From positions 23,769-87,768 of the IMG/VR virus record IMGVR_UViG_3300047160_022640: a stretch of DNA of 64,000 nucleotides; one strand, given 5' to 3'. A program made the position numbers and the translations under genes. A model generated the notes under the pieces. The model was not told where the DNA came from. It saw only the letters and a list, made by a program, of their open reading frames with translations, and did no database searches. Of the stretch, positions 2,497 through 58,719 are shown piece after piece. Each line of letters opens with the position of its first letter. Within the stretch, counting starts at the first letter, position 1. Origin of the DNA: a virus (Duplodnaviria > Caudoviricetes).

Positions 2497-3678
2497 ATGT
2501 CGTTCTATCTAGTGCAGCGCGGTGATTCTCCGGCGAGCATCGCTCGACGACACGGCGTGTCGATAGGGTCGCTGCTCGGCGCAAACCCGCACAAGCCTGT
2601 CGTTGCGGTCGGTCAAGTACGAACGTGGCAATCGCTTGGACTCGGCGAGCGCTTGAACCTTCCAGTGGGCGTCGGCGCAATCACGCCAGCGCCGCTGAAC
2701 GCAGTGCACAAACAGATCAGCATCAACAACCCGGGACCGCATGTCGCGGATGCGGATGTGGCGCTCTGGCAAACCATCGTCGGAGCAACCCCTGACGGTC
2801 TCTTCGGACCGAACACGCAAGCAGCGACGAAGGCGTGGCAAGCCGCGCACGGGCTTGCTGCGGACGGCATCGTCGGTCCGAAGACGTGGGCCGCTGCAAC
2901 GTTGGTGGCCGCTCCAGCTGCAGCCGCCGCGTCACTTCCTCAGATCGCCACGCAGATCTTGTCGCAGCTCCCGTCTATCCCGGGTATCACGCCAGCTGCC
3001 GCTCCCGCTCCTGTCCCTACGGCAGCGCCCACCGTAACCCCGGCGGCGCCGGCGGCGGCAGCGATCCTCGCATCAGGAATCGACCCGTGCCTCTCCGACA
3101 ACGCGCAGATGGTGTGCGCGGCGCAGCGCGTGCTCGGTGTCGCAGCCGATGGCAAATACGGCAACGACACCGCGACGGCGTTGCGGAAGTTTATACCGGG
3201 CGCTCCTCCCGGATGCAGCCCACGCCCTGCTTGGTGGACGCCGACGGGACAGAGCAACTGCAACACGGTAGCTGCTGCGCCTTCGCTTCCTTCGCTCCCT
3301 TCCCTCCCGCTACCGGTCCCCAGTGCTGCGCCGAGTCTGCCGTCGATCCCGTCGGTGCTTCCGATGCCGTCGACCTCGTCGACGCCGCTCCCGCCGATCG
3401 TCCTCCCGACGAACCCACCGACCGTAGTTCCGCTGCCATCGGTGCCGTCGATTCCGTCTGTCTTGCCGACGACGGCACAACCCGGTCCTGTTCAGCCTAC
3501 GGTGACGGCGCCCGCGAAAGCGGGCATCAGCCCCGGCGTCATGGTCGCGGGCGGTCTCGGCGCCGTAGCACTCGTCGCGATGGTGGCGATGAGCGGAAAA
3601 CACGGAGGCGGCCGAGCGCCAGCGAGCCGTCGATCAGGCGGCCATAAGGCGCGCCGCACTTCCAGGAAGCGAAGGTAG
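2497..3678 (+). CDS. LysM + peptidoglycan-binding (PG_binding_1-like) protein with Pro-rich stalk and C-terminal TM anchor
   Basis: YLVQRGDSPASIARRHGVSIGSLLGANP (LysM); DGLFGPNT..WQAAHGLAADGIVGPKTW; C-terminal TM followed by basic tail. Confidence 0.85.
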   Translation: MSFYLVQRGDSPASIARRHGVSIGSLLGANPHKPVVAVGQVRTWQSLGLGERLNLPVGVGAITPAPLNAVHKQISINNPGPHVADADVALWQTIVGATPDGLFGPNTQAATKAWQAAHGLAADGIVGPKTWAAATLVAAPAAAAASLPQIATQILSQLPSIPGITPAAAPAPVPTAAPTVTPAAPAAAAILASGIDPCLSDNAQMVCAAQRVLGVAADGKYGNDTATALRKFIPGAPPGCSPRPAWWTPTGQSNCNTVAAAPSLPSLPSLPLPVPSAAPSLPSIPSVLPMPSTSSTPLPPIVLPTNPPTVVPLPSVPSIPSVLPTTAQPGPVQPTVTAPAKAGISPGVMVAGGLGAVALVAMVAMSGKHGGGRAPASRRSGGHKARRTSRKRR

Positions 3679-3681
3679 GCG

Positions 3682-3870
3682 ATGCCCGAGATAGTTCACC
3701 AGGAGACGCTCTGCTGCGGGTCCAAACGGTGCCCGACAGTGAAGTTTCTCCATGATGGATCGGTAGTCATCACCGACGATGATACGGAGATCGGATCGGT
3801 CGGTACCATCAAGATTAGTTCAGATGCGCTCGATCGCCTCATCGAGTTGCGCGAACAACTGAAGAGGTGA
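3682..3870 (+). CDS. Hypothetical protein
   Basis: 62-aa ORF tightly packed in the operon. Confidence 0.6.
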   Translation: MPEIVHQETLCCGSKRCPTVKFLHDGSVVITDDDTEIGSVGTIKISSDALDRLIELREQLKR

Positions 3871-3874
3871 TCCT

Positions 3875-4318
3875 GTGCTAGTCGCCAAACGGCTCGGTAG
3901 TGAGACGTATCCGCAGCCGAAGCAGGCGGCGGCTCAGTTCTCTGTCGTATACGTTTCGGATCCTACGGCGTATCACCAGACCCAAGGTAGCCCCTCACTG
4001 CTGGTCGTCAGCGGAACGATTAATCTGCAGCCAGGATCGCGCGTGAAGGTCGAGGGGATGGTGACCTTCGTCGGATCTGTCGCGGCGGGTAGAGCGATCC
4101 TGTCATCACCGCAAGACCCCGGAGTGATCGGCAACGCTTCTTTCGATGTCGCTCAAGGATCCAACTACAGAACGCTCAATTTCATTGGTTTCACCGACGT
4201 GCAACCGGCTGGGCCTTACACGATCGGTTTGTTTCTCGACGTGAACGGCTCGGCAGGAGCGCGTATAGATTCCGCAGGACCGAGTGTGCTCGTGCTCACA
4301 GAGATACCTGCGTCCTGA
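3875..4318 (+). CDS. Small beta-sandwich fibre-associated protein with N-terminal ETYP motif
   Basis: 147 aa; N-terminus RLGSETYP shared with the collagen-like proteins. Confidence 0.6.
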   Translation: MLVAKRLGSETYPQPKQAAAQFSVVYVSDPTAYHQTQGSPSLLVVSGTINLQPGSRVKVEGMVTFVGSVAAGRAILSSPQDPGVIGNASFDVAQGSNYRTLNFIGFTDVQPAGPYTIGLFLDVNGSAGARIDSAGPSVLVLTEIPAS

Positions 4319-4340
4319 TTTAGAAGGGCGGTAAAACACA

Positions 4341-9968
<5,628 letters not shown>

Positions 9969-9978
9969 AGGATGCAAA

Positions 9979-12480
9979 ATGGCCGAGCTAGTTGACCAGC
10001 GCCAGTTGTCGTTGACCGGTTTGACAGGATCGACCGGAAGCAGCGGCACAGGCCCTACCGGGCCCACCGGCAGAACCGGCCCTACTGGAGCGACAGGAAA
10101 CACCGGAGCGCCTGGATTCGCCACCAACACCGGTGCTACTGGGCCCACCGGAGCTACCGGGCCCGGCGCGCTGCCGTTGACACGTCAGCGTTTTATCGAC
10201 GCCGGAACAGCAGCGAGCGTGCATAACGGATCGTACCCACAACCGTTCGCTTCGATCACGCAGTTCATGGCATCGCGAACGAATGTGTCGAGCGATGATG
10301 CCACATCGAACTACGTGGGATGGCTGACACCTGCTGCGGGAGCGTACACAGAGAGCGTCATTTTTCCTGCTTATTGCTCGACTGAGTTGCGAGCTCCTTC
10401 TTTTTCTCTGGCCCCATTGGGTGCTGTATTGAACGGAAGTGTTCTCTGGCAGAACACCGGTGGCGCTATCTCTCCGTTTCTCGGAGCGACGGCGTCTATG
10501 CACAACGTCAGCGTACTTTTCGGGATCACCGTAGTCGATGATGCTGGCGCACCTATATCTAACTTCTCATTCAGCGGAGATTCTGTATCCGGACAGCTTG
10601 CCGGTGCGGAGATTGCTGGAAACTTCATTTCGAGCGCCTGTTCCAGACTTCGGCAGGTCTACTTCCTCAACGCTGCGGTAGTCGGTGACATCGACTGCGG
10701 TACTAGCTCAGACAGCGCGTTCCTCAACATGCGTGCGAGCTCCGTGCAAGGGAATGTTACCTGCAACGGATTGTACGCGGACGGCGTCACATTCGAGTCG
10801 TCATCGATAACGAGTTCGGCGTCAGCGCAGGCTACATTTCAGAATTGTGCGTTCGAGGGACCAACGCTCAACTGTCCGGCGGGATCGTTGTTTGACGGCC
10901 CCTCCTGGCAGAGTTTCGTCTCTACAGGAGGGTTACGCACGGCTGGGTTCGCTCTCGTCACGGGCGGATACTCCGGAGCTTCAGTAGATGGCGCTAATCT
11001 CAGTAGCGGGTCATCTAGTGTTTCGTTGAACGGTCTCGCTCCTGGCACGTCGCCCGCTTACACCGGTGTAAACTCTGGGAATCACTACACTGCGCCGACT
11101 TTGACAGCGCTTAGTTTTGTGACTCTGCTTACCGGTGGAGGAGAAAACAACGGCGACACGCTGATGATCACGAAGCAGGACACGTCTCGCTTCGGATTTT
11201 CGATCCTGAACAATTCAGGGCAAATCATCGGACTGATTCCCGCAGGAAGCAGCGGTTTCTTCCTAGCCAAATTCAACGCCTTTCTAGGAGATTGGTTTCT
11301 CGAAGAGTGCGGCTCTCAGAGCGGTGTTCTATCTCGTCAAAAATACATCGATGGTGGCACGCAAGCCGTGCTCCGAAATGGCGCCATTTCGCAGCCGTAC
11401 CAAACGATCACGGAGTTCACATCCGTTCGCGGAAACGCATCCGTAAACGATGCGACAACAAACTACGTCGGCATCGTAGTGCCTGCCATCAACGGGTACT
11501 CGGAAAATATTTCCTTCACTCCGTACGCATCAACAGAGCTTCGCGCAGAATCTTTTTCGATTCCGTCCGGCACCCGCGGCGTGATTCTGAACGGTAATGC
11601 TACGTGGCTCAACTCCGCTGGCGCGAATGTCGGTGTCAGTCCAACCGTCGCTATCCACAACATCTCCGTTGGGGGAACGTTCACTGTTTCTGACGACGGC
11701 GGCGCCCCGACATCGACCGTGATCTTCGGCAGCGACGAAATTCCAGGCGGCGTGTTCTTGAGCGCTTTCGACGCCACCGGCGCCAATCATCTTGGAAGCG
11801 CGCAGTTCTACAATGCCGAAATCGGTAACTGTAATGCGGGCAACGGCGCCAGCGCCCCATCTGTCGTGCTTACTGGATGCACGATGTTGGGTGTCATCAC
11901 GGCCGGATCTCTGAAGGCGACAGACACGCTGTTCGCGGTCGCGTCGATCACAGTCAAGACGGGCGGCGTCACACTGTTCTCCAACTGCACGTTCTCTCCC
12001 GGTTCCAATCCGCTTTTGACTTGCACAGGCGGCGGTCAGTTCGACGGCCAATCGTGGAGCTCGTTCATCGCCGCCGGAGGCACGCGAGCTGCAGGTACAT
12101 TCGCGCTGGTCACGGGCGGATACAACGCCGCGCCTATCGAAGGCGCTACGTTGTCGGCGACGGCTGACACTAGCGTGTCGTTGAACGGGAACGCAGCGGG
12201 GACGACGACCGGGTACACCGGTAACAACTCGGGGAATCACTACACGTGCTCCAACTTGACGGCGAACCGAGCTGTCAAAGCGTTGAAGGGCGGCGGCGAG
12301 ATGAACGGCGACACATTGCTGATCACCAAGAACGGCCCCTTCGCATTCGATCTGTCGGTGCAGAACTCGAGCGGCTCTACCGTCGCTGTTTTGCCGTCTG
12401 GGTTCCGGGCGTTCGCGCTTCTGCAATTCTCGTCACTGGCTAACGAGTGGCTGTTCGTCGAGGGAGGGCAACTGTCGTGA
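9979..12480 (+). CDS. Short-collagen fibre protein with two RQ(R/K)(F/Y)ID modules
   Basis: 833 aa; paralogous to the C-terminal half of 4341-9968. Confidence 0.85.
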
Positions 12481-15383: not shown

Positions 15384-18012
15384 GCGCGTGTTCATGTCGC
15401 TCGGCATCTTGCGTGTCGCGGCCAGTCTCGAGAGTGCCGGGCATCGAGTGGAGATGCTCGACCTGAGCGGTGTCGAGAACTTCGAAGAAGTCGCGGCTCT
15501 ACACGCTGCGAGTACGACGGCCAGCGCTGTCTGCATCACAGTGACGACGCCACAACTGCCAGCAGCGGTCAAGATCGTGGCGGCAATCAGACGAGCGGCA
15601 TCGCACTTGAAGATCATCGCCGGCGGGCCGCACATCACGCTCGTGCACTCTGCCGTGAAGCTCGAACGCAAGAGCTCGCGAGTCGGGCGCGCGCATCGGG
15701 CGCTCGACAAGCTTCAGCAGATCTTCGACGTGCTCGTGTCCGGTGACGGGGAGCTCGCGATCTTTGAAGCGCTCCGTGTGCCGAGCGGCGTCGTCGACGC
15801 AGACGTCCCGAACGGTGTGTTGTTCTTGACTAACAAGGCGTACGATGAGCTTGCGTGGCCAGCGCGTCATCTTGTTGACGTTGCAAGTTACAAGTACAGC
15901 ATCGACGGGTTCAAGGCGACGAGCGTGATCGCCCAGCTCGGGTGCCCGTTCGGCTGCGGATTTTCATTGACTGGTGACGCGCTAATTTCCATCGAATCAG
16001 GGTTCAAGAGACTGAGCGAGCTAGTTGCCGGCCCCGGCGCAATCGAGCGCTGCGCGCATGGCGGCGCGGTGTGCGTGCACCGTGTCTCGAAGAAAGTGGC
16101 TACGCATCAGGGATGGTCATCTGGTGTCGAGGTTGTCGACGAAGGTACGCGTCCTGTCTACGAAGTTCGTACAGAAAACGGGCTGCGACTGCGCGCAACG
16201 GCCGAGCATCCGTTCATGGCGGTCTCCGGGGACGATGTCGTGTGGCGAGACGTGCGAGACCTGCGAACAGGCGACTGGTTGGTTATGCAAGAGCCTGAGA
16301 TGAACTGGCCGAATGAATACGTCTCCCTGCCCGCCCCAGAATCGCTCCCGGAGATCCCGCGCGGCGGTTTCGAACGCAAGAAGCATCATCGGACGCCTTC
16401 AAGAATGACCCCAGATCTAGCCTGGTTGACAGGGTTCATTGTCGGCGACGGATGCTTGCCGGCGGATCGGCGTCCGTCGGTTCACATCTGCGTGACTGTT
16501 GCCGTCGCGGAAAAACTCGAACGCATCGTCTTGGAGCAATTTGGCGTTCGGCTGTGCGTCAACAGCTCGTCAGTTACCGGCAAGATGCGCCACGGGTGGA
16601 TACATAGCCGCATCGTTTACAACTTCTTCGCCGATGTGCTCCATATGGGCGCGGGCAACAAGCTCCACGTCCCAGAGCAAATACTTCGTTCGCCAAGGGA
16701 CGTGATCGAAGCGTTTTTGAGAGGGCTACTCGATGCGGACGGATACAACGATGGCCGGTCAGAGTATCTGACCACGGTTTCGTGGGATCTTGCTCGAGAG
16801 GTGGCAAATGTATGGTTGATGCTGGGTCACGTTCCCTCGATCAATGAGATCTCGGGGCCCGACTATTCACCGGGGACGTGCTATCGCGTACAAACATTTA
16901 GGAATGACCGAATTCCAACTAAGAAAGCGCTGTATCGGTCAACCAAGTCGGGCTCTTGGTATTGGCGCACGCCGCGCGATAAAACACACTTCCTAGGTAT
17001 TCGCAGGCGTACGCTACGCGAATCAGGGTTGACACACCCTCTTGATGTACCGGGTCGTCACTACGTACGTGTCGAGGCGATCACGCCTGGCGTTCCTGAG
17101 CGTGTGTACGACCTGCGTGTTCCTGGTGCGCATTCATTCTTGGCAGACGGCATCGTTTCGCACAACTGCGGCGGTCGGAACACTGCGATGCTCCGACGTA
17201 TTCGCACTAGATCGACGGAGAACATCGTCGCCGAGATCGAGCACTTGCACCGCACTTACGGCTTTCGCGCATGGATGTTCTACGACGACGAGCTCAACGT
17301 CAGCAAAACCTTCGTCGAGCTCCTACGCGCGCTCACAGCGTTGCAGGAACGTCTGGGGCAAGAGTTCCGGTTCCGCGGGTTTGTCAAATCGGAGCTCTTC
17401 AACGCAGAGCAAGCAGAGGAGATGCAGCGCGCCGGTTTCCGGTGGCTCCTCTGCGGCTTCGAGGCGGCCGATCCGCGCATCCTCGAGAACATCAACAAAC
17501 GCGCAACGCTCAAGGACAACGACCGTGTCATCGAACTCGCGCATAAGCACGGACTCAAGGTCAAGGCGCTCATGAGCGTCGGGCACCCGGGCGAATCAGA
17601 GACGACCATATACGCGGTTCGCGGATGGCTCACGTCGCGCGCGCCAGATGATTTCGACGTTACAACGATCACGACCTACCCGGGCACGCCGTACTACGAC
17701 GAGGCCGTACCGCACGAGAGCGCATCCGATGCGTGGACATACACCGCGCGCACCGGCGACCGATTGCATTCGCTCGACGTCGATTACACGCAAGTCGCTG
17801 ACTACTACAAGGGCGCCCCCGACAGTTATTGCTCGTACGTGTGGACCGACTACATTTCGCGCAAAGGGATCGTAGAGTGCCGCGACAATGTAGAACGCGA
17901 CGTGCGCGCGGCGCTCAGTATTCCATTTAATCCCAGTGCTCCCGGAGTGCGCTACGAGCACAGTTTCGGACAAGGAAAACTGCCTGAGCGAATTCTTCGG
18001 GAGAGCGCATGA
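15337..18012 (+). CDS. B12-binding radical SAM protein containing an intein
   Basis: N-terminal PLGIL-like SLGIL and IIAGGPH; CPFGCGF/C motif restored after intein removal; FYDDELN and GFEA downstream. Confidence 0.85.
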   Translation: MPIVMVIPPSLFLLDERVFMSLGILRVAASLESAGHRVEMLDLSGVENFEEVAALHAASTTASAVCITVTTPQLPAAVKIVAAIRRAASHLKIIAGGPHITLVHSAVKLERKSSRVGRAHRALDKLQQIFDVLVSGDGELAIFEALRVPSGVVDADVPNGVLFLTNKAYDELAWPARHLVDVASYKYSIDGFKATSVIAQLGCPFGCGFSLTGDALISIESGFKRLSELVAGPGAIERCAHGGAVCVHRVSKKVATHQGWSSGVEVVDEGTRPVYEVRTENGLRLRATAEHPFMAVSGDDVVWRDVRDLRTGDWLVMQEPEMNWPNEYVSLPAPESLPEIPRGGFERKKHHRTPSRMTPDLAWLTGFIVGDGCLPADRRPSVHICVTVAVAEKLERIVLEQFGVRLCVNSSSVTGKMRHGWIHSRIVYNFFADVLHMGAGNKLHVPEQILRSPRDVIEAFLRGLLDADGYNDGRSEYLTTVSWDLAREVANVWLMLGHVPSINEISGPDYSPGTCYRVQTFRNDRIPTKKALYRSTKSGSWYWRTPRDKTHFLGIRRRTLRESGLTHPLDVPGRHYVRVEAITPGVPERVYDLRVPGAHSFLADGIVSHNCGGRNTAMLRRIRTRSTENIVAEIEHLHRTYGFRAWMFYDDELNVSKTFVELLRALTALQERLGQEFRFRGFVKSELFNAEQAEEMQRAGFRWLLCGFEAADPRILENINKRATLKDNDRVIELAHKHGLKVKALMSVGHPGESETTIYAVRGWLTSRAPDDFDVTTITTYPGTPYYDEAVPHESASDAWTYTARTGDRLHSLDVDYTQVADYYKGAPDSYCSYVWTDYISRKGIVECRDNVERDVRAALSIPFNPSAPGVRYEHSFGQGKLPERILRESA
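15964..17166 (+). mobile_element. Intein (401 aa) with LAGLIDADG homing endonuclease
   Basis: Starts SLTGDALI; block B LRATAEHPF; LAWLTGFIVGDG and AFLRGLLDADG; ends VYDLRV..HSFLADGIVSHN followed by Cys+1. Confidence 0.92.
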
Positions 18013-21403: not shown

Positions 21404-23481
<2,078 letters not shown>

Positions 23482-23482
<1 letters not shown>

Positions 23483-24513
23483 TGGCGAAGCAGACGCCAT
23501 ACAGGATCGCGGGACCTGTCAGACTTCAGACGGACATCACCACGGTCTATTCGGTTCCTTACAATTCGAAGGCAACCGTCAATTCAATTCAGTTCTTCAA
23601 TCAATCAGGATCACCGAGAACGGTCACGTTCGCGCTCGGCGTGGACTCGGGTCAGACACGTGTCTACACAGAGGTGATACCAGCGAATGGGCAGCTAAAC
23701 TTCAGAGTCGGTTACGCGCTAGAGGACAACGGGGAAATCCAGGCGTCCGTTGATCTCAACTACGCCGTGATGATGACTGTGAACGGTACCGAGCTCCTCG
23801 GGGACCAAACTGGCCTTCCAATGCCTGGGATATCCGGAAATTGGGTGCTCGTATTTCAAGATGACTTCGACGGACCGGTTAACAGTGCGCCCAATCTAAA
23901 CAACTGGGGGTACTGGCTAGACGGACAGATGCGCAATGCCGCTATCAACAGTTACAAGAACACGTTCTTGGACGGATCAGGAAACTTGCAGCTGCGAGTC
24001 ACCAACGCCGATATCGGATACGGAGCCGGCGTCATCACAGCTGGAGGACTGACAACCGAAACACTGAAGATATTCGGAGTCGGTTGTTATTTCGAAGCTC
24101 GGTGCAAGATCACGTCTGGCTGGTTCGGATGGTGGATCCAGAGCCCACTGATGGACGGGATCGTGTCTCCAGCTGAAGACGGAACAGAAATGGATCTGAT
24201 CGAATCCTGCTGCCCTGGACCGGTGCATCACGCTGTGCATTGGGGTGGTTACGGATCAGGACATATGTTTGAGACGTTCAATCCGACAGTAGATCAGACG
24301 CAGTTCAACACGTACGGAATGCAGTGGACTCCAACCGCATACAACTTCAACACGAATGGAGTTGTAGATTGGGTATTCACAGACGCTATTTCAGAGCGCA
24401 GAGACCAGTTCGTGCGTCTGACTATGGAAGACAACGGAGACTACACGTCTGGTGATGTGCGAGTAGACTACGTACGAATCTGGAGACCCAGATTCGGCTG
24501 GACGGGGGACTAA
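23482..24513 (+). CDS. Beta-sandwich N-domain fused to glycoside hydrolase family 16 domain
   Basis: WVLVFQDDF, GYFEARCK-like CYFEARCK, catalytic EMDLIE (ExDxxE), VDYVRIW; ATG overlaps the upstream stop. Confidence 0.85.
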
Positions 24514-25216: not shown

Positions 25217-27232
<2,016 letters not shown>

Positions 27233-40171: not shown

Positions 40172-40339
40172 TCACTTCCCCTTCTCGTGTAACCGCTTCG
40201 CCTCTTTCTCTACCTGTTCGATACGCGCAGTCAGTTTCTGGTTGATCTTTTTTCCTCTGCCTTGCGACAGCTTGAGCTGTTTGAGCAGCGTGTACGCTTC
40301 GCGCGATGTCTCGAACTCTCCAGATTCTCTTTCAGCCAT
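40172..40339 (-). CDS. Small hypothetical protein
   Basis: MAERESGEFE..KRLHEKGK, translated by hand; overlaps the upstream stop. Confidence 0.45.
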   Translation of the reverse strand: MAERESGEFETSREAYTLLKQLKLSQGRGKKINQKLTARIEQVEKEAKRLHEKGK

Positions 40340-41096
40340 TGCTCTGACTCCAATTTGGTTGACACGTTTCCAGTAACGTTTGTGCCATCTCGCGACGCAA
40401 CTGACGGCGAGTAGCGCCCCACTGGTCGATCGCCGGCTTCAGTGCTAATTCTGCTTCGGCGAGGTCGGCGAGGTCGGCGCGGGCGGCGAGGGCGGCGAGG
40501 GCGGCGCGGTCGGCGAGGGCGGCGAGGTCGGCGAGGTCGGCGCGGGCGGCGCGGGCGGCGAGGGCCGTATCCTCGGAGTCGATCGGGGGAAGCGCACGCA
40601 TCCTGGATGCAAGCTCCGACGATGACGCGCACGCTTTCTCACACGCAGCCACGACATCGGGATGTTTCTCGAGGCCGATGCAAGCGGCTCGCATGAGAGC
40701 GATGCTCGTTTCAAGCGAGCGGGGATACCAGTCGCGTAGGCTGCGGTCCCAGAGAATGAGCGCGACCTTCGCCGAATCGCCGCGTGCCGCTGTCCCTCGA
40801 AGTGCCATCTCGAGCGGTCCCAGATCGCGCGTGCGCTCGATCGCTCCCTCGGCGGTGTCAGGGTAGGAGTCGTTCAACACTCGCCCGAATGCCGCCCTCA
40901 CCTTACAGACCGAATCATCCGGATGGTCCGTCACCTGATCGCGATGCTCTTCGAGCCACATGCGCAGATTCTCCGACCTCAGAATATCCGCTGGGATGGA
41001 GCACGCTTCGAGCAGACAGAGTTTGCAATCCCGTCCGCCTTTGGCTCCGTATGCGAACGTGAATCCATCGGGCAATGCTGATTCGGTTTGATTCAT
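40332..41096 (-). CDS. Hypothetical protein with Ala/Leu/Asp/Arg low-complexity tract
   Basis: AGGAG ribosome-binding site before MNQTES; ALAARAARADLADL repeats. Confidence 0.65.
   Translation of the reverse strand: MNQTESALPDGFTFAYGAKGGRDCKLCLLEACSIPADILRSENLRMWLEEHRDQVTDHPDDSVCKVRAAFGRVLNDSYPDTAEGAIERTRDLGPLEMALRGTAARGDSAKVALILWDRSLRDWYPRSLETSIALMRAACIGLEKHPDVVAACEKACASSSELASRMRALPPIDSEDTALAARAARADLADLAALADRAALAALAARADLADLAEAELALKPAIDQWGATRRQLRREMAQTLLETCQPNWSQSNG
40458..40565. repeat. 12 x 9-bp coding tandem repeat GGCG(A/C)GG(T/G)C
   Basis: Read directly from the sequence. Confidence 0.9.
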
Positions 41097-41123
41097 ATCG
41101 GACTCCTGAGTTGTCTTTCTGAG

Positions 41124-41166
41124 TCCCCGCCGCAGGAATCGAACCTGCGCACGCACCGTGACGGGG
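41124..41166 (-). ncRNA. tRNA-like minihelix (acceptor stem + T-arm, no D or anticodon arm)
   Basis: CCCCGTC-11 nt-GCAGG TTCGATT CCTGC-GGCGGGG-A. Confidence 0.45.
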
Positions 41167-41659: not shown

Positions 41660-42574
41660 TCACTCTTTCTCCTTGCTAACTGTTGCCTTTGCCGCGCGCG
41701 CTTCTTCCAGACGAGCCGCGACTCGGTTGCGAGCCTCGACGATCATTCCTGGGTACGCGCGCAGATATTCTTTCACCTGCTCGTTGAGCTTGCTGTCTCC
41801 GATCTCAGTGAGCATCACCTCGATCTCCTTGCGGAACGTCTCGGCGCGCTCGAGGTCGGCCGAGCGCGCCTTAGCGAATTCGTCCCACGAGAGCAGAAAC
41901 CGTTCCGGAAACGTCGTCAGCGCGCGCGCCTTCGCATCGAACGCCGGGCACCGGCGGGTGTGCGCATAGCGCACGTCGGTCGTTACCGCTTTGAATTCGC
42001 CGCCGACCTTCTGCTGTGAGACTTCCTCGCGAGCGAAGAAGACGTACTCATTCCACTGACGAAGAAGCCCGGCGATTTGATCGCGCATCGCCACCTGGAA
42101 GCGATCGTATCCGGGGCCGCTCGGATCGTCGAAGTGCTTCACCTTCATGTGCGCCGTGAAGACGATCGCGTGCCCAGATGTCCACACGCGTTCGAGAATG
42201 CCGAGGAGCTCGCGCCATCTAATAACAGCAATAGTTTCACCGCGGCCGTAACCACCGTCCCATTTATCGATCGTAGTTCCCTGGAAGAACTCAGCGTTCC
42301 CGAGGTACTCGAGATCACCCGCAGCATCGATCACTAGTGTCTTGCAACGCACCTGGTTCGTCGCGACAGCGTCCACCCAGGAGAGCGTTTCGGTCCACGT
42401 CTCCGGTACGACCCGCTTGACGTCGTATTGAAAACTCCCCTTGTTGAGGTCTAGGAAAAACGGATCCGGAGCGCCGGCGGCAAACTTGGTTTTGCCAATG
42501 CCGTCGGCGCCGTAGATCAGCACGCGAGGTTCGCGTTGCTGTTTGCCTTCGCTGATTCGTTTAAGATCGATCAT
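41660..42574 (-). CDS. AAA_24 family ATPase (Sak4-like recombination protein)
   Basis: VLIYGADGIGKTKFAA, TLVID, WDGGYGRG, IVFTAH; real start MIDLKR downstream of the array. Confidence 0.88.
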   Translation of the reverse strand: MIDLKRISEGKQQREPRVLIYGADGIGKTKFAAGAPDPFFLDLNKGSFQYDVKRVVPETWTETLSWVDAVATNQVRCKTLVIDAAGDLEYLGNAEFFQGTTIDKWDGGYGRGETIAVIRWRELLGILERVWTSGHAIVFTAHMKVKHFDDPSGPGYDRFQVAMRDQIAGLLRQWNEYVFFAREEVSQQKVGGEFKAVTTDVRYAHTRRCPAFDAKARALTTFPERFLLSWDEFAKARSADLERAETFRKEIEVMLTEIGDSKLNEQVKEYLRAYPGMIVEARNRVAARLEEARAAKATVSKEKE

Positions 42575-42605
42575 GGTCTTCCTTTTAAAATGGGGACGGC
42601 GCCCG

Positions 42606-42778
42606 GTAGCCTCGCGCAGCTGTTGATCCTGGGCGGCCTGCGCGAAGAGCTGCTGCCCGTGCGCCAGTCGCGATATTCGTAGCCTCGCGCAGCTGTTGAT
42701 CCTATCGGAGAATGGACGGACGATGACACGGCGCGAACCATGTCGCGATATTCGTAGCCTCGCGCAGCTGTTGATCCT
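42606..42778 (-). CRISPR. Mini CRISPR array: two full 37-bp repeats + one 25-bp partial terminal repeat, 2 spacers (38 and 36 nt)
   Basis: Repeat (minus) AGGATCAACAGCTGCGCGAGGCTACGAATATCGCGAC at 42742-42778 and 42667-42703; partial at 42606-42630; unique spacers 42704-42741 and 42631-42666. Confidence 0.9.
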
Positions 42779-42807
42779 CGTCATCAGGATACCGTGTAAT
42801 TTCGACA

Positions 42808-44391
42808 CTATGCCGCCCGCTCTGCGAGCACCTTCGTCGCGCGAGTAAGAATCACCTTTGCGGCACCCTGATCCTTATCCCTCACGAGACCGCAGCCGGG
42901 ACACGCAACGAGCAATTCTGGTCCATTTTCCACTAGTTCGCCGCACTCTGGGCACTCGCGAGTCGTGTTGCGAGCGGGTACCGTGATTATCTCGGCACCG
43001 TACCGCTCGCAGATCTGCGTGAATTCGTATCGAGCCGAAATGTCCCTAGTGCTTCGCTGTCGGCGCTTCCGTTGTTCCTCCTTCTGTAGCCGTTTGATCT
43101 GAGGCACCGATTCGTCTTCGAACGCGAAAATTGCGTATCGACCACGAAGTTCGCGAACAGTGCGCAGATAGAGCTCACGACGCAAGTTCACGATCCGCTT
43201 TCGGCGCGCCGTGATTCGTCGTTCGTAGCGCATCTCCCAGCGCAACCAATCGGTCTCCTCCGGGGTTCGTACACCCGATCTCATTAACGCGCGTCGGTAG
43301 AGGTATCGATTCCGATGCGCCAACCCGAGTGTTTTTTGTCGAGCTTTGTACGCCTCGTCGAGTCTTCCTTTCATAGTATCGATTTCGTCGAGCGCTGTCC
43401 GGCACTCTGCCGGAATCAAAACTTCCCCACGCTCGCCGTCGTCACCGAGCCATGTGAATACCCGAATCCCTTCACGCCAACGCTCGTGACCGTGCTCGCG
43501 ATGACCCCAATCAAAGGCCACCATGCGCGACTCAGCGCGCGGAACAGATGGCTTCTCCATTTCGATCGTCATGCTTACAGAGTAACTCCAGCGCTCGCCG
43601 TCCTTTCTGCGTGTGAGCTTCATGGTGCGAAACCCGGCATCAAGTGGGATCTGGTGCCAGTTGCCGCATTTTGCTCGCATACGGATCCATTCGTCATTGA
43701 CGCCGATTCGAAGTTCCAGAATCCACCACAACTTCCCGCGTTCTACGATGCGGAAGCCTCCACGATCAGCGGAAAGCGTCACCGGGTCGCGATACTTTGG
43801 TCGACGTAACTCCGCTGGCACACCGTGGGTCCTCGACATCACAACTGCCTTGCGCGCCTGATCAACGCTCCTGAGTAGAGCGTTCCAGGTGCCCCAGTAA
43901 ATGTGCCGAGATGCGTACAGCGTGGCGCGATACGTCTCGCGACGAGTGAGCTTTGTACGACGTTTCGCGCAACGTTCCTCGAACTCAGTCTCACTCTCAC
44001 CGGTTCGACGGCGAGCGCCACCGCGATCCGGTGCGTCTAGAGCCGGCGTGTCTGCCCACGTCAGTGCTTCCTTCCACCTGGGATCAGTGTTGCGTACCGT
44101 ACGAAGCTCCGTGAGCAGGCCTCGAAGCTTCTCGGCTAACTCCGGACGAGGGTTCGGGGACCACGTCCCTTCTGGAGATCGCTCGAATCGTCGCGCGCGG
44201 TGCGCGAGACGCGCAACGATCCGTCCGACCCGAACGATGCCTGGAGCGATCGTGTCGGCTGCGGCATCCATAACTCGCTGATGTTCGTCTTCGAAATCAA
44301 GCAGCCGATGGTACGTCCAACGCGCTGAGGCACATTCCGAGGAAATGCGATCTTCGCGTTCCAGTAGAGAGGGGCGTGAGAGGGTCAGCAT
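42808..44391 (-). CDS. Compact type V CRISPR effector, Cas12m (V-U1)/TnpB-like
   Basis: YWGTWNA..G.PA.LR; RuvC-I VAFDWGHR (D294), RuvC-II FAFED (E425), CxxC-x13-CxxC zinc finger, RuvC-III RDKDQGAA (D507); array 29 nt downstream. Confidence 0.85.
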   Translation of the reverse strand: MLTLSRPSLLEREDRISSECASARWTYHRLLDFEDEHQRVMDAAADTIAPGIVRVGRIVARLAHRARRFERSPEGTWSPNPRPELAEKLRGLLTELRTVRNTDPRWKEALTWADTPALDAPDRGGARRRTGESETEFEERCAKRRTKLTRRETYRATLYASRHIYWGTWNALLRSVDQARKAVVMSRTHGVPAELRRPKYRDPVTLSADRGGFRIVERGKLWWILELRIGVNDEWIRMRAKCGNWHQIPLDAGFRTMKLTRRKDGERWSYSVSMTIEMEKPSVPRAESRMVAFDWGHREHGHERWREGIRVFTWLGDDGERGEVLIPAECRTALDEIDTMKGRLDEAYKARQKTLGLAHRNRYLYRRALMRSGVRTPEETDWLRWEMRYERRITARRKRIVNLRRELYLRTVRELRGRYAIFAFEDESVPQIKRLQKEEQRKRRQRSTRDISARYEFTQICERYGAEIITVPARNTTRECPECGELVENGPELLVACPGCGLVRDKDQGAAKVILTRATKVLAERAA

Positions 44392-44394
44392 GGT

Positions 44395-45252
44395 TTAGCC
44401 TCTAATCGCTCGCCAATCTCCCGCGCGGAGCTTTTTTGTCACTCCGGCCGGCATCTCCTTGATCGTGTCGAGCCACGCCGCGATGTCAGTCGCAACCGTA
44501 TCCTCCGCTCGCTTCGAGATTCCGCCGTTGCCATTTTTGCCGCCGTTCACGATCTCACGGGCCTTGGTCGCGTTCCCGCGTCGCTTCTTGCCGACCGCAC
44601 GTGGCGCGTGCTCCTTGAGCTCGGTGACCTTCTCACGGGCCTCAGATGGTTCCAGCTTCGAAAGCTTGTAACCCTCGCTGGCAGTGATCTGTCCCGCCTC
44701 GACAGCGTTACGCACCGCTGCCGGAGCATCGAGCAACGAAAGCAAATTTTTGATCGAGGCTTTACTGACCCCGAACAACACCGCGATCTCTTCTTCGGTG
44801 TGCCCAAGCTCGATGAACCGTTGCGCTTTACGCGCCCGCCCGAGCGGCGTGTCGTCCTGGCGATTCTCGTTCTCCGAGATCAACATCGCCATTCCGCGGT
44901 GCGCATTGGCGCGCGCGATCATGGCTGGGACCCGGAGAAGCTCCGCGCCCTGCTTCTTCAAACGCTTGTTCGCTTCGCGCGCCGCCTTGACTCGCTGCCG
45001 CCCGACCGCAACCTCGACCTTTCCGGTCTCCGGATCCCGCACGACCGTGATCGGCTCGAGAACGCCCTGCGGTGTCTTTCCGTCCGGAGCGTAGAGCATG
45101 TTCATCACCAGCGATTCGCTCACCGGTAGGTGCACGCGCTCGTCGAACAACGGATGCTTTTCGTCCGTCACGAGAACCAGATCCTCCGGGTCGAACATGT
45201 AGGCGTCGCGTTTACCCTTGGCGTTCAGTGCATCTCTCGATTGTTTCGGCAT
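44395..45252 (-). CDS. ParB/Srx-like N-domain protein with HTH
   Basis: GVLEPITV..VAVGRQRVKAA; ISENENRQD; EEIAVLFGVSKASIKN. Confidence 0.8.
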   Translation of the reverse strand: MPKQSRDALNAKGKRDAYMFDPEDLVLVTDEKHPLFDERVHLPVSESLVMNMLYAPDGKTPQGVLEPITVVRDPETGKVEVAVGRQRVKAAREANKRLKKQGAELLRVPAMIARANAHRGMAMLISENENRQDDTPLGRARKAQRFIELGHTEEEIAVLFGVSKASIKNLLSLLDAPAAVRNAVEAGQITASEGYKLSKLEPSEAREKVTELKEHAPRAVGKKRRGNATKAREIVNGGKNGNGGISKRAEDTVATDIAAWLDTIKEMPAGVTKKLRAGDWRAIRG

Positions 45253-45298: not shown

Positions 45299-46381
45299 TT
45301 ACGACGCGGCACTCAAAAGCATTCCCACCGCATCCGTTTCGACAATGGCGTCCACTCGCCCGCCGAGCGAATACGTTCGCGAAGCCGCCCCTGTCTCTGG
45401 ATTCACCAGTGGGATGCGAAACGTTTGTTCAACCGCGATCAGGCCGGTCGGTTTGCCCCACCGAGCGGCATACCCTACGAGCATCGCTAGCTCCTTCGCG
45501 CGCGTGTAGAGCTCCTCGAGCGGAGCTTCTGGTTTGCTACCGGTGAGCAGTGCAGCCTTCGCCGCTTCCAGATCGCCGCCGGTGCGCCGATACACATCAA
45601 GCGCCGCATGAATACTCGTCCCCGTGCTCAGAGTGTCCGCTTTCTTGAGCGACCGTCTCCGGAGTTCGTAGTAGAAATAGAACTTGCGCGGACAGAGCCG
45701 GTACTTGCGCATCGAGCTCTGCGTCAGCAGATCAAGATCGGCGGAAACGTTGCCGCCCTCCTCGACGAGCTCTGCGTGAAGATCCTTGTCGGTCCTGAAC
45801 AGAAGATCGTCATCGATCGACGCGAGCCCCGAACACACGTTGAGGTACTCGCACTCGCGTGACCACTGCAGACAAGAATCAGGATTTCGCGGGTAGATTT
45901 TCAGTCGGCGCGCCTCGCGCATCTGGGCAGCCGTGTTCCAGGTATCGAAAGCCGCTTCGCGCTCGTCCTGCTCGAGTCGGACGACGACGCCGCGCGCGTA
46001 GTACTTGTCGGGAGCCTCGGCAATGACTTCCAAGCAGCGATCGTGGAACTCTGCTGGGGTTTCGGGACGCGACTGGAGCACGTACCCGAGCTCAGCATCT
46101 CCGGTCTGCCGCCATTTTTTGCCGTCCTTCGTACGCACGCGTTGTCCAGAGGCGTCGAGAACGATTTTAATGCCGTTCTCATCGAGTGTCGGGACGGCGC
46201 TCGGGCGGATGTCAGGTTTTCGGAGGACATCGTAGACAGCCCCGTGCGGGTCGTGACCGAGCTTGCGGATAGCGGGGAGATAGACGGAGAGCTGCGGGTC
46301 TAGCGTGGTGCGCTTCCAGAAAGTGGAGCCGGAGGAGAGGTCCTCGGAGGTTGTCTTGCTTTCCCAAAGATAGACCTTCAC
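45299..46381 (-). CDS. Circularly permuted PD-(D/E)XK (Cas4/AddB-like) nuclease
   Basis: Order ESKTT, QLSVY, C-x6-C-x5-C, then TQSS..CPRK, GTSIH, VEQTF, GRVD; GTG start overlaps the HNH stop. Confidence 0.8.
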   Translation of the reverse strand: MKVYLWESKTTSEDLSSGSTFWKRTTLDPQLSVYLPAIRKLGHDPHGAVYDVLRKPDIRPSAVPTLDENGIKIVLDASGQRVRTKDGKKWRQTGDAELGYVLQSRPETPAEFHDRCLEVIAEAPDKYYARGVVVRLEQDEREAAFDTWNTAAQMREARRLKIYPRNPDSCLQWSRECEYLNVCSGLASIDDDLLFRTDKDLHAELVEEGGNVSADLDLLTQSSMRKYRLCPRKFYFYYELRRRSLKKADTLSTGTSIHAALDVYRRTGGDLEAAKAALLTGSKPEAPLEELYTRAKELAMLVGYAARWGKPTGLIAVEQTFRIPLVNPETGAASRTYSLGGRVDAIVETDAVGMLLSAAS

Positions 46382-46953
46382 GTGAGCCACTTCCACGTTT
46401 GCATTGTACAAATGCGTTGTACATGAGACCTAGAAACACCGAATCGAGCACCTATCGCGTCGTAAGTGGCTCCGGTGCGATTTCTTTCTCTGCGAATACG
46501 AAGGACAACATCTCGAGAGAACTTGTTTAAAGAATTGCGTTCTCCCTTAGCGTAAGTTCCAGATCGGCGCTTTCGACGGTTATTTGCCTGTTCGGTAGCG
46601 GTCGCCCATCTGCAATTTCCAGGTTCGTAGTTGCCGTTCACATTTGGAAAACGATCGATCGAGTGTGATCGAGACGGTTTTGGACCCATGTCCTTTAAAA
46701 ACGCCGAGAACGAAGTGCGCCAGCGATCGCAAACCGTAATTCCGCGACCTCCGTAGAGCGGGTCCATTTTATCAGCGCATCTGCGCTTCATTCCTTGCCA
46801 AACGCGGTATTCAGGAGAGCCCTCCTTGCCGTGAGTTTCTCGAAAATGGACCTCTCCAGGAGCCGCTGACTTGTGCCACTTTTGGTAGTGCGTGGAACAC
46901 AATCCGCGCGCACGTGATACATTACGACATCCGTTGATAGAGCAACGAGTCAT
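46378..46953 (-). CDS. HNH homing endonuclease
   Basis: YGGRGITVCDRW..HSIDR..NGNYEPGNCRWAT..QANN; lower GC than its neighbours. Confidence 0.9.
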   Translation of the reverse strand: MTRCSINGCRNVSRARGLCSTHYQKWHKSAAPGEVHFRETHGKEGSPEYRVWQGMKRRCADKMDPLYGGRGITVCDRWRTSFSAFLKDMGPKPSRSHSIDRFPNVNGNYEPGNCRWATATEQANNRRKRRSGTYAKGERNSLNKFSRDVVLRIRRERNRTGATYDAIGARFGVSRSHVQRICTMQTWKWLT

Positions 46954-55887: not shown

Positions 55888-58719
55888 CTAGCTTGACGGA
55901 TCTGGAGACCACGGTTCCGACGCTTCGGAATAAACCGTGCCAATAGATGGAGCGGTCATAGGAACCACTCTCCAGCGCATAACCCCAGCTGCGCCAGGCT
56001 TGGCAACGAGACGATGACCGTCGATAACACGACCCTTGAATGCGGCCAGACGCCTTCCTAGTTCCACCGCATCAGGCACTGAGCCCCCGCGCCCCTCGTG
56101 CTTCATTCCACGCTTTCCAACAAGCGTTTCAATGGCGTCTCGGGTGTCTTCGAGCCCATCCGGCTTGTAGCCGCCGTTTATCGGATCTGGAGTCCGCTGA
56201 CATCGATACAGTAGATCGATGACCGAACTAATCCTGAAGTCCTCCGATCCCAGCATGGAATGCAAGGAATTCATGATTGTTCGAATGCTACGGAGTTCGT
56301 TGTCGACGTCTTCTTCCACCTCCGGCCTGGCAAGCATCGGATCGGCGCCACCCGCAAAAACGATCGCGTGTGGAATGAGTCGACTCCACTCCTCGAAGCT
56401 CCCCCAGCGCGCGCAGCCCATTGGTGGCTTTCCTGCAAGAAAGTAAGCTCTAAGGATCAGTAGTGCAGCCGCGACTAGACGGGGTCTTTCTTTTCTGATC
56501 CATGAAAGCAGATCGTCGTGCCGAAACTTGGTTCGGCGCTCCGGTTTCTCTTCGATGGGTTCAAGTCTAGCCATAAGAACTCTACGACTAGTATCTCCGT
56601 AGAAACTGATATTGTTACCGGTCGCCATAATGAGCGCGCGCCACTGAAGAGTGACGACCTTGGTATATCCAAGAACGCGAAGTTCGACATCGTCTCGAAC
56701 TGTGATGATTCTGTCTATCGGACCCCCACCAAATGGTCGCATTGCTGGAATGTTGTCGAGGCATATAAAGGAAGAACCGCGCAGTGCATAGCTGGCCAGA
56801 ATTTTCTCGAGCTCTACTTCATCGATTGTGTAGTTCATACGCGGAGCTCCGCGCCCAGTAGCTACGGTGGCAATCGCATCGGTTTGAAGCGTTTTTCCAG
56901 AACCGCGCGTAGAAGCGTCAAACAACACGGCCGGTACTGATCCAAGAATCGCTGGACGCGCAATGAGCGTCAGAATAGCAGCAATGGGCACTGATCTATG
57001 TGATTCATTTACATAGGGAAAATCTTCGAAACATTCGCTTAGAAATCTGAACGCCCACTTCGCGTTATCTCGTGTGGCCATTTCATCTGTAACAGATGGG
57101 AATTGTTGACCAGGAGAATACACATATCGTGTGGACGGATCATACCCTTCAGTTTGGATGATCTGTCCGTCTGAGCGCAAGATCGGAGTCTCTACTACAC
57201 CAATCAGTGGTCGTATTCCTGGCCAATTTGCTCTCTTTTTGACAGCTCCAACTATCTCGTCTGTTGGAATAAATGGAACATAGTTTTGAAGTCTGCTGCT
57301 CCATTTTTGAAAATGCGCCACCGATGATAATCGTTCCCTAAGGGTCGGCGTTTCCATTTCGCAAATCTGAGGAGATCCTTCTACCAATTGTCTATGTGTC
57401 TGCCCGTCGTCTGTAGGAACCGTATCAGATTCTTCGCTTTGCTCTCTTTTTATGCGAGCAACAAAAACCAGTTTCGTCTCTCTCTGATAGATCTCAGGAT
57501 CTCTTTTCAATGCGGATATAGCTTCGTCTGCGTTCAGCATCACTTCATGAGTAATGTTGATTGTTGGCTTTTTTGATGTTTGTGAACTAGGGGACAATCC
57601 CCAAGGATCGTCGGGAGGAGGCGGTTCGGTGTAGGGTCCAGGTCCCGGGGGACTGGATGGCGCCGGATCTGCCAGCACCATCGGTGAAATCACATCTCCG
57701 CTCTCTCGTACGGTTCGATCGGCACTGGCAAGCGTCGCGCGAACTTCGTGTTCCGGAAGTCCAGCGGCACGAGCTGCGCGTAGCAGCTCGTCGTGTACCC
57801 AATGCCACTTCGATGCTAGGTACATTCCAGCACAGAGCTTAAAAAGTCGGCAGGCGCTGGCGAAAAGGGTGTTGTTGCGCATCCCGGAACCGCATCCGGC
57901 AAGCGCGCGTGCTTCACCATCAACAGCTGCATCCAGATACTTCTCTGCACGGGTGCGCGCTTGCCCCGGCTTGTTCATTTGCGCAGGCGTGTATTTATCT
58001 ATGAATTTCGGTTTCTCGAACTTCTTGAGAAGTTGCATCGCCCACTGGAGAGGCAACGGAACAATCTCTCCGATCCGTGTCCACACGTAGCGCTTGCCAT
58101 TCGCGTGCAGACTCGGAGCAATAACGACCTGTCCACCTTCGGCTTTGACATCGACGCCCGGGATACCACCTAGTCCGGTTATATTCTTGAGGCGATCAAC
58201 GTCGATCTCCGGTGGTAGCGTGAAAAATAGACGATACCCTCTTCCGGAATCGCAGCGTGGTGTCTCCGGTAGTGGCCCGAGCTCCGCCTCAAGCTCCGCG
58301 AACCGTGAAGCGTCGTCGACATCAACCGCGATGATGTACTCGCCGTCTCGCTGCTTGCCGAGCACCATGCCGACATTCGGCATGAATCGACAACGCGCGA
58401 TCTGATCTTTCAGCTCATCGAGAGAAGGATTACGCTTGCTCCAGTTGCTCTGGATCGGGTGCTTGCCAGTCGACGAGGAACCGCTCGCTGTCTTGTCGTG
58501 AGCTTTCCCGCAAGAGCACCCGCCATCCGCCGTTGGTGCATGGATCAGGATCGGCTTGAGTCCGGCGTTGAAGCAGGTGATAGTCGCTTCTTCGGTGGAT
58601 TCTACGGACAGCAGGGACTCGGGAATGCAGAGACGCGCTTTAGTCGGTGGCGGTGGAGTCGTGGTTGAATTGTCGTCATTGCCTACTCCGTTCGTGTCGC
58701 TCATGATGTTGTCCGCCAC
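55888..58719 (-). CDS. Bifunctional primase-polymerase fused to a helicase-like P-loop domain
   Basis: GKHP, NVGMVLG..AVDVD, GRGYRLFF, DVKAEGGQVVIAPSLH; GMRNNTLF (PriCT); RGSGKT Walker A. Confidence 0.88.
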   Translation of the reverse strand: MADNIMSDTNGVGNDDNSTTTPPPPTKARLCIPESLLSVESTEEATITCFNAGLKPILIHAPTADGGCSCGKAHDKTASGSSSTGKHPIQSNWSKRNPSLDELKDQIARCRFMPNVGMVLGKQRDGEYIIAVDVDDASRFAELEAELGPLPETPRCDSGRGYRLFFTLPPEIDVDRLKNITGLGGIPGVDVKAEGGQVVIAPSLHANGKRYVWTRIGEIVPLPLQWAMQLLKKFEKPKFIDKYTPAQMNKPGQARTRAEKYLDAAVDGEARALAGCGSGMRNNTLFASACRLFKLCAGMYLASKWHWVHDELLRAARAAGLPEHEVRATLASADRTVRESGDVISPMVLADPAPSSPPGPGPYTEPPPPDDPWGLSPSSQTSKKPTINITHEVMLNADEAISALKRDPEIYQRETKLVFVARIKREQSEESDTVPTDDGQTHRQLVEGSPQICEMETPTLRERLSSVAHFQKWSSRLQNYVPFIPTDEIVGAVKKRANWPGIRPLIGVVETPILRSDGQIIQTEGYDPSTRYVYSPGQQFPSVTDEMATRDNAKWAFRFLSECFEDFPYVNESHRSVPIAAILTLIARPAILGSVPAVLFDASTRGSGKTLQTDAIATVATGRGAPRMNYTIDEVELEKILASYALRGSSFICLDNIPAMRPFGGGPIDRIITVRDDVELRVLGYTKVVTLQWRALIMATGNNISFYGDTSRRVLMARLEPIEEKPERRTKFRHDDLLSWIRKERPRLVAAALLILRAYFLAGKPPMGCARWGSFEEWSRLIPHAIVFAGGADPMLARPEVEEDVDNELRSIRTIMNSLHSMLGSEDFRISSVIDLLYRCQRTPDPINGGYKPDGLEDTRDAIETLVGKRGMKHEGRGGSVPDAVELGRRLAAFKGRVIDGHRLVAKPGAAGVMRWRVVPMTAPSIGTVYSEASEPWSPDPSS

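Follow-up and report, generated by a model that had tools for sequence, protein, structure and literature searches.

Effector gene and associated array

The stretch of DNA analysed here (the window; 64,000 nucleotides, positions 23,769 to 87,768 of the IMG/VR virus record IMGVR_UViG_3300047160_022640) comes from a soil virus (Duplodnaviria; Caudoviricetes) whose 87,768-bp record is complete (CheckV 100%). It carries, on the minus strand at 42808-44391, a gene for a 527-amino acid (aa) protein of the Cas12m lineage (V-M / V-U1-like), referred to below as the effector, and directly behind it a short CRISPR array. Together they would constitute a minimal virus-encoded type V-M-like system in which the effector is co-transcribed with a two-spacer mini-array. 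An earlier note on this DNA had proposed, from hand-counted motifs within 42808-43512, that the protein is a smaller, possibly nuclease-active relative of Cas12m. This span reaches from the D294 codon to the stop codon, i.e., it covers the C-terminal nuclease lobe of the gene only, and the longest open reading frame (ORF) across it is the one at 42808-44391 (minus strand, 527 aa). A scripted scan of the translated ORF bore out all the hand counts. The RuvC-I Asp is D294 in VAFDWGHR (motif start residue 291; codon 43510-43512, minus strand), the RuvC-II Glu is E425 in FAFED (motif start residue 422; 43117-43119, minus strand), and the RuvC-III Asp is D507 in RDKDQGAA (motif start residue 504; 42871-42873, minus strand). 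The CxxC...CxxC zinc finger of the TNB domain (42892-42954, minus strand) consists of C480/C483 in CPECG and C497/C500 in CPGCG, with the motifs starting at residues 480 and 497. The TNB zinc ribbon (PF07282, residues 460-514) was the sole Pfam domain seen in the effector. A public gene call on the same contig is a truncated 343-aa protein (P0011; 100% identical across 65% of the query). The 527-aa form is taken to be the real effector, because homologs conserve the sequence from residue 1.

The array lies on the minus strand. Repeat 1 (37 nt; 42742-42778) begins 29 nt past the effector stop codon and is followed by spacer 1 (38 nt; 42704-42741), repeat 2 (37 nt, identical to repeat 1; 42667-42703), spacer 2 (36 nt; 42631-42666), and a degenerate terminal repeat (42594-42630) that is 73% identical and diverged in its 3' half. 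Upstream of the effector, a ParB-like gene (44395-45252, minus strand) has its stop 3 nt before the effector ATG. Downstream, the Sak4-like AAA_24 gene (41660-42574, minus strand) has its true start at 42574, 19 nt past the last repeat. The order ParB-like gene, effector, array, and Sak4-like gene would form an operon within a replication/recombination gene block. A GGAAG ribosome-binding site lies upstream of the start of the Sak4-like gene at 42574. A 382-aa ORF called at 41660-42808 (minus strand) is an artefact, and its first 78 codons (42575-42808) precede the true start and are mostly read through the array.

No Cas1, Cas2, or Cas4 was found in the complete 87.8-kb virus genome (Cas4 by its Pfam model). 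Two genes upstream of the effector, a PD-(D/E)XK (PDDEXK_1) nuclease gene is present at 45299-46411 (minus strand). Because the Cas4 Pfam model had no significant match in the genome, a role as a viral recombination exonuclease is more likely for this gene than one in adaptation. A further copy of the repeat, in sense or antisense orientation (i.e., an anti-repeat), was also not found in the virus genome. We infer that the guide functions without a trans-activating CRISPR RNA (tracrRNA) and that the effector matures its own CRISPR RNAs (crRNAs).

Homologs of the effector were present in three other complete virus genomes (G001, G002, and G003) and in contigs of metagenome-assembled genomes (MAGs) labelled Sorangium and Acidobacteria. 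In each of those five loci there is an array of the same repeat family, the number of repeats ranging from 7 to about 34. The array stands directly behind the effector gene in five of the six loci (the window, G001, G003, and the Sorangium and Acidobacteria MAG contigs); in the exception, G002, a 12-repeat array is located ~28 kb from the effector gene. G002 also contains at least four solitary repeat copies on both strands (1064, 18103, and 66777 on the minus strand; 12447 on the plus strand). The position of the cassette varies: it is inserted between the ParB-like and Sak4-like genes in the window and lies ~4 kb further on in G003. The arrays of G003 (L012, ~3050-5600) and G001 (L007, ~15990-17530) have about 34 and 16 repeats, respectively, with spacers of 17-47 nt, and the repeats within each of these arrays differ mutually by compensatory changes. 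These long arrays, unlike freshly acquired Cas1-Cas2 arrays, suggest growth via duplication or recombination.

Among 44 unique repeats, pairing was preserved in 42 to 44 cases, with compensatory changes, for two stems of 4 and 5 bp that jointly form a pseudoknot. A G-A pair was present in 41 of the 44, and the repeats end in AC. The crRNA of Cas12m2 follows the same plan: its repeat-derived handle of about 36 nt combines a pseudoknot stem and a G-A pair with a terminal C that adjoins the guide (PMC10442227). Judged by this covariation, the repeat is a Cas12m-type pseudoknot scaffold and would fold into the corresponding crRNA handle.

Placement in the Cas12m lineage

The lineage of the effector is very probably Cas12m (type V-M / V-U1). 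In PADLOC, the Cas12u1 model (V-U1 is the former name of V-M) was the best match for the effector (1.5e-34) and for all 27 family members tested. The Cas12f models ranked second and matched mainly the C-terminal RuvC/TNB part of the effector. The six best PDB profile matches were four solved Cas12m proteins (Cas12m2 as two constructs) and, in third place, the mimivirus Fanzor2 L79. The E-values were 5.8e-22 for UnCas12m4a, 1e-18 for the Cas12m of entry 23vw, 8.6e-11 for Cas12m2, and 5.7e-10 for GoCas12m; Cas12f chains gave E 1e-3 or weaker, and TnpB was marginal (E 0.06). NCBIfam is without a Cas12m-specific model, and a genuine Cas12m-type relative also matched TnpB models only; the absence of a Cas12m match there is thus uninformative.

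A hidden Markov model search of 1.84 billion cluster representatives yielded a tight family of 30 clusters at E <= 1e-30, below which lay broad relatives of 550-650 aa with E-values of about 1e-30 and weaker. These broad relatives are regarded as genuine Cas12m because one of 42 such Cas12m-type relatives strongly matched all four solved Cas12m proteins (23vw 1e-66, 8HHL 2e-29). The viral family was monophyletic with a support of 100 in a FastTree phylogeny of 95 sequences (not TnpB-rooted). A tblastn search with the effector protein gave no match among 50,697 GenBank phage records. On the basis of these sequence comparisons, the family of the effector is considered a distinct, compact, virus-borne clade within the Cas12m lineage.

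The fold led to the same lineage. An AlphaFold2 model built from the family alignment had a mean predicted local distance difference test score (pLDDT) of 86.5. In Foldseek searches, Cas12m2 (4e-21) and GoCas12m (1e-20) came out on top, and Cas12f, Cas12p, and TnpB followed at ~1e-12; VIA-align superposed 478 effector residues on GoCas12m. Helices 328-355, 362-372, and 377-416 of the model lie between the RuvC-I strands and E425, and this helical insertion (328-416) occupies the site of the Cas12m REC2 insertion but is shorter. In the REC region, R150 and R151 are invariant and R128, R140, and R155 are near-invariant, although the residue-by-residue alignment to Cas12m2 carries low confidence in this region. 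In Cas12m2, an Arg-rich REC1/REC2 pocket (R111/R112/R126) clamps the non-target strand.

The solved proteins with the closest folds, MmCas12m2 (8HHL/8HHM/8HIO) and GoCas12m (8PM4), share with the effector the order of domains, a crRNA pseudoknot accompanied by a G-A pair and a terminal C, a conserved WED His (H246 in the effector, H269 there), and possibly an Arg-rich REC region. They differ in that they have an H-D-D triad, are 596 and 614 aa long, and are encoded on actinobacterial plasmids or chromosomes; their similarity to the effector is detectable by profile only (E about 1e-10). The best PDB sequence matches were the Cas12m proteins of clades 3 and 4, which have a D-E-D triad (MsCas12m; UnCas12m4a, 23vu/23vv; and 23vw, a 'CRISPR-associated DNA-binding protein Cas12m'). 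These and the effector have in common the D-E-D columns, a CCCC zinc finger, a YWGTWN-type REC motif, a presumably tracrRNA-free array, and a lack of adaptation genes. On the other hand, they are only about 20% identical to the effector, which is 50-90 aa shorter, has a shorter insertion between RuvC-I and RuvC-II, and falls in a separate virus-borne clade. A search of the literature for 'Cas12m4' yielded no publication describing UnCas12m4a. The effector has a virus-encoded counterpart in MvCas12m of myxophage MV-1, which is likewise array-adjacent, lacks cas1/cas2/cas4, and has a D-E-D triad (D305/E463/D555); by description it differs in its length of 610 aa, its eight spacers, and the absence of identified protospacers (bioRxiv 10.64898/2026.09.14.751636). 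MvCas12m was called the first phage Cas12m in that September 2026 preprint. As the present clade demonstrates, virus-borne Cas12m is wider than MvCas12m alone.

The view of the effector as a smaller relative of Cas12m was borne out, since it has 527 aa compared with 577-614 aa for solved or characterised Cas12m proteins; it is shorter than any characterised Cas12m that we found in the literature. The further suggestion of an intermediate between TnpB and Cas12m held for size only: the first and second triad residues are 131 aa apart in the effector, compared with 87 in TnpB (D191/E278) and 168 in Cas12m2 (H317/D485), whereas sequence, fold, repeat scaffold, and array linkage place the effector with Cas12m. 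The same evidence bears on whether the effector could be a transposon TnpB with an omega-RNA, the neighbouring repeats being incidental. The NCBIfam models guided_TnpB and IS200_TnpB gave 42.3 and 16.7 bits, but the respective cut-offs are 100 and 425. Every related locus has, along with the gene, an array of covarying structure, and in the window this array stands where the omega-RNA would be. The effector has ~100 extra REC residues and a helical insertion, both absent from TnpB, and is flanked by ParB-like and Sak4-like genes, with no TnpA or transposon ends beside it. ISDra2 TnpB (8H1J, 8EXA) differs from the effector as an active nuclease with a long omega-RNA that is transposon-borne, ~120 aa smaller, and devoid of a REC2 insertion. 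A TnpB identity is therefore extremely improbable.

Two other type V affiliations were considered and rejected. Cas12f (V-F) ranked second in PADLOC, reached only E 1e-3 or weaker against the PDB and ~1e-12 in Foldseek compared with ~1e-21 for Cas12m, and is at odds with the lack of an anti-repeat. Cas-delta, described as a 'transitional' type V effector, is unrelated and has 867-936 aa.

RuvC site and mode of interference

HMMER single-sequence and profile searches against PDB sequences placed D294, E425, and D507 on the D, E, and D of IGIDLG, GVEN, and HDRDTNAA in UnCas12m4a (23vu) and on the equivalent residues of the Cas12m of 23vw. In the alignment with Cas12m2 (8HIO/8HHL), they fell on H317, D485, and D579, respectively, which form the RuvC site of Cas12m2 in the cryo-electron microscopy paper (PMC10442227). 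Profile-profile comparison (hhalign) of 27 family members with the 42 Cas12m-type relatives gave a probability of 100% and E 1.7e-49 over 463 columns, and all three motifs lined up. Among 109 full-length homologs (43-76% identity), D294, E425, D507, D505, C483, and C497 were invariant, and the zinc-finger residues C480 and C500 were present in 106 and 100, respectively. The three acids are thus located inside, not outside, the RuvC catalytic positions of the solved Cas12m chains and the 42 relatives, and the claim of a canonical D-E-D triad stands, the triad being correctly placed and strictly conserved in all 109 homologs. From these alignments, the placement of the triad on the RuvC motifs is judged to exceed chance, and D294, E425, and D507 would form a canonical RuvC pocket.

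Because 94 of the 121 nearest cluster representatives (>=430 aa) have D-E-D and none has H-D-D, D-E-D is the common, and probably ancestral, state near the effector's family. The Cas12m-type relatives depart from D-E-D repeatedly and independently (FastTree, 95 sequences). In a sister sub-branch (P0125, P0127, P0131, P0133, and P0134), the RuvC-I motif reads GIDTGHR, the RuvC-II Glu is replaced by Asp (D-D-D), and three members have a broken second CxxC. This sub-branch looks like inactivation in progress beside a strictly D-E-D core clade.

The earlier note had reasoned from the premise that characterised Cas12m proteins have a non-canonical RuvC site, and this premise failed. Cas12m comprises four clades, of which clades 3 and 4 are D-E-D and were suggested by Omura et al. 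to possibly hydrolyse DNA (PMC10442227); four D-E-D orthologs have been assayed. A non-canonical triad (H-D-D, N-D-D, HEK...) is absent from the effector and is not a family-defining feature. Bigelyte et al. examined eight Cas12m orthologs, including the four with D-E-D, in a cleavage-based protospacer-adjacent motif (PAM) assay and obtained cleavage of double-stranded DNA (dsDNA) with none, and six of the eight bound DNA in a PAM-dependent manner (PMC11013384). Purified D-E-D MsCas12m cleaved neither target DNA nor target RNA and showed no trans cleavage of a reporter (PMC11013384). Furthermore, Cas12m2 remained unable to cut when its HDD triad was mutated back to DED, and the triad residues of Cas12m2 help to hold the non-target strand via one Mg2+ (PMC10442227). 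Because the assayed D-E-D orthologs and the DED back-mutant do not cut, an intact triad is no predictor of nuclease activity in this lineage.

We favour binding-only interference, because every Cas12m assayed so far, including the four D-E-D orthologs, lacks cutting; that the effector acts by tight, metal-assisted DNA binding and not by cutting is, in our weighing, an evenly balanced proposition. The guided effector would be directed to the dsDNA of related rival viruses, probably beside a T-rich 5' motif, and the acidic pocket would retain the displaced DNA strand via Mg2+. Such very tight binding may block replication or transcription of the target instead of cutting it. In this case, the effector would be another compact, naturally nuclease-silent Cas12m, and its small size could make it modestly useful as a scaffold for base or epigenome editors.

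Several points weigh against binding alone. In the core clade, conservation is complete for the triad, which shows no drift, and complete or nearly so for the zinc finger. To judge by the decay in the sister sub-branch and the repeated loss of the triad in relatives, the site degenerates under relaxed selection, so its retention in this clade is active and consistent with catalysis. A virus that attacks a rival would gain from irreversible cutting. Moreover, the clade is only about 20% identical to any assayed Cas12m, which makes the extrapolation weak. Meiothermus, the source of MsCas12m, is thermophilic. The assays of MsCas12m were performed at 37 C (PMC11013384).

These points leave a true RNA-guided DNA nuclease or nickase as a real but minority possibility for the viral clade. 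The clade would then use a two-metal D294/E425/D507 site and be the first cutter of the Cas12m lineage, with the 527-aa tracrRNA-free effector as an editor candidate. Set against this are the failure of every tested D-E-D Cas12m to cut and the lack of cutting upon DED restoration in Cas12m2, and the conservation of the triad is equally explicable by Mg2+-mediated strand binding. In addition, Gly replaces the usual Asn of the RuvC-III DxNAA motif in 93 of the 109 homologs and in the effector (RDKDQGAA), and no basic residue occurs between the effector's two CxxC pairs. The active-site Arg of Cas12f is R490 (PMC8053092). It is also rather unlikely, though worth stating, that the core viral clade with its invariant D-E-D and CCCC is the first target-cutting or target-nicking branch of Cas12m, a tracrRNA-free 527-aa enzyme with a 37-nt repeat that destroys the replication genes of rivals. 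If cutting is true, cleavage competence survives in the Cas12m lineage in a very small tracrRNA-free nuclease, and comparison with the non-cutting D-E-D orthologs could reveal an off-switch beyond the triad. Cas12j (CasPhi) offers a likeness here, being a phage-encoded, compact, tracrRNA-free type V nuclease with a D-E-D RuvC.

The triad could also be kept mainly for metal-dependent maturation of pre-crRNA, as in phage Cas12j (CasPhi) and Cas12c, with DNA interference by binding. In Cas12c and Cas12j, the RuvC site performs pre-crRNA processing (PMC10442227), and the literature has assigned no such site in Cas12m. The array is part of a polycistronic operon, with 29 nt separating it from the effector stop and 19 nt from the start of the next gene, so that precise RNA cutting would be needed. 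However, the RuvC mutants D485A of MmCas12m2 and D274A of the D-E-D MsCas12m, the two Cas12m proteins tested, still process pre-crRNA (PMC10442227, PMC11013384). We consider this role of the RuvC site improbable.

Spacer targets and repeats elsewhere in the window

When 70 spacers were compared with the four virus genomes by blastn-short and ungapped scans, only two matches rose above the shuffled background. A spacer of G003 (array position 23514) was identical at 30 of 38 positions to window 56357-56394 (minus strand), which lies within the Prim-Pol gene (55888-58719). All differences in the compared codons are synonymous, so that the spacer encodes the peptide of the window gene, EEWSRLIPHAIV. 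The Prim-Pol allele of G003 itself reads EEWGKLIPHAIV (EEWGK...) and is only 25/38 identical to the spacer. This match indicates that the window virus or a close relative is a target of the G003 array. The 5' flank is TTC at both the window and the G003 Prim-Pol sites. The PAM of MmCas12m is 5'-TTN (PMC10442227), and the TTC flank of the sole cross-virus protospacer homolog gives a hint of agreement with it.

The second match involves a G002 spacer (23553) and a DUF5906 helicase-like gene of the same virus (9121-11553). At 9760-9794, 32 of 35 positions were identical, with mismatches at 10, 12, and 14 (A-K vs S-R). The spacer has the appearance of a guide that is aimed at a rival allele and would spare the virus's own copy. 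The 5' flank of this self-site is GTG, not T-rich.

The two matches show that the arrays of the sister viruses contain fragments of replication genes from close relatives. Spacers of this origin fit virus-versus-virus exclusion, which has been reviewed for viral mini-arrays (PMC11656645). The synonymous-only match of the G003 spacer is direct sequence evidence that these viral mini-CRISPR systems aim at related viruses; in the sole published report of a phage Cas12m that we found, that of MvCas12m, no targets were identified.

Spacers 1 and 2 of the window had no target in exact 20-22-nt searches of IMG/VR, and searching in this way with the two informative spacers of sister viruses returned only the arrays themselves. 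One metagenome scan with spacer 1 gave a single match: its first 20 nt recur exactly within a bacterial dcw cluster, in an ftsI-like gene (L026 6605-6624, metagenome contig Ga0307516_10011638). This match was discounted as chance-level and not as host targeting, because it ends at 20 nt, has a GCG flank, and ~1-2 such matches are expected by chance according to our own estimate; spacer 1 is thus left with no convincing target.

At 40438-40590 (minus strand), within an ORF of 274 aa that has no family match (40332-41156), there are twelve overlapping register copies of the 9-bp unit GCGGCGAGG and its variants, which encode a short peptide repeat. The PHROG 'tail fiber' matches of the large ORFs at 4341-9968, 21407-23482, and 25450-27192 are due to collagen-like Gly-X-Y repeats and provide no evidence for a tail. 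The Gly-X-Y repeats of these ORFs also give rise to hundreds of DNA repeats in a 9-bp register.

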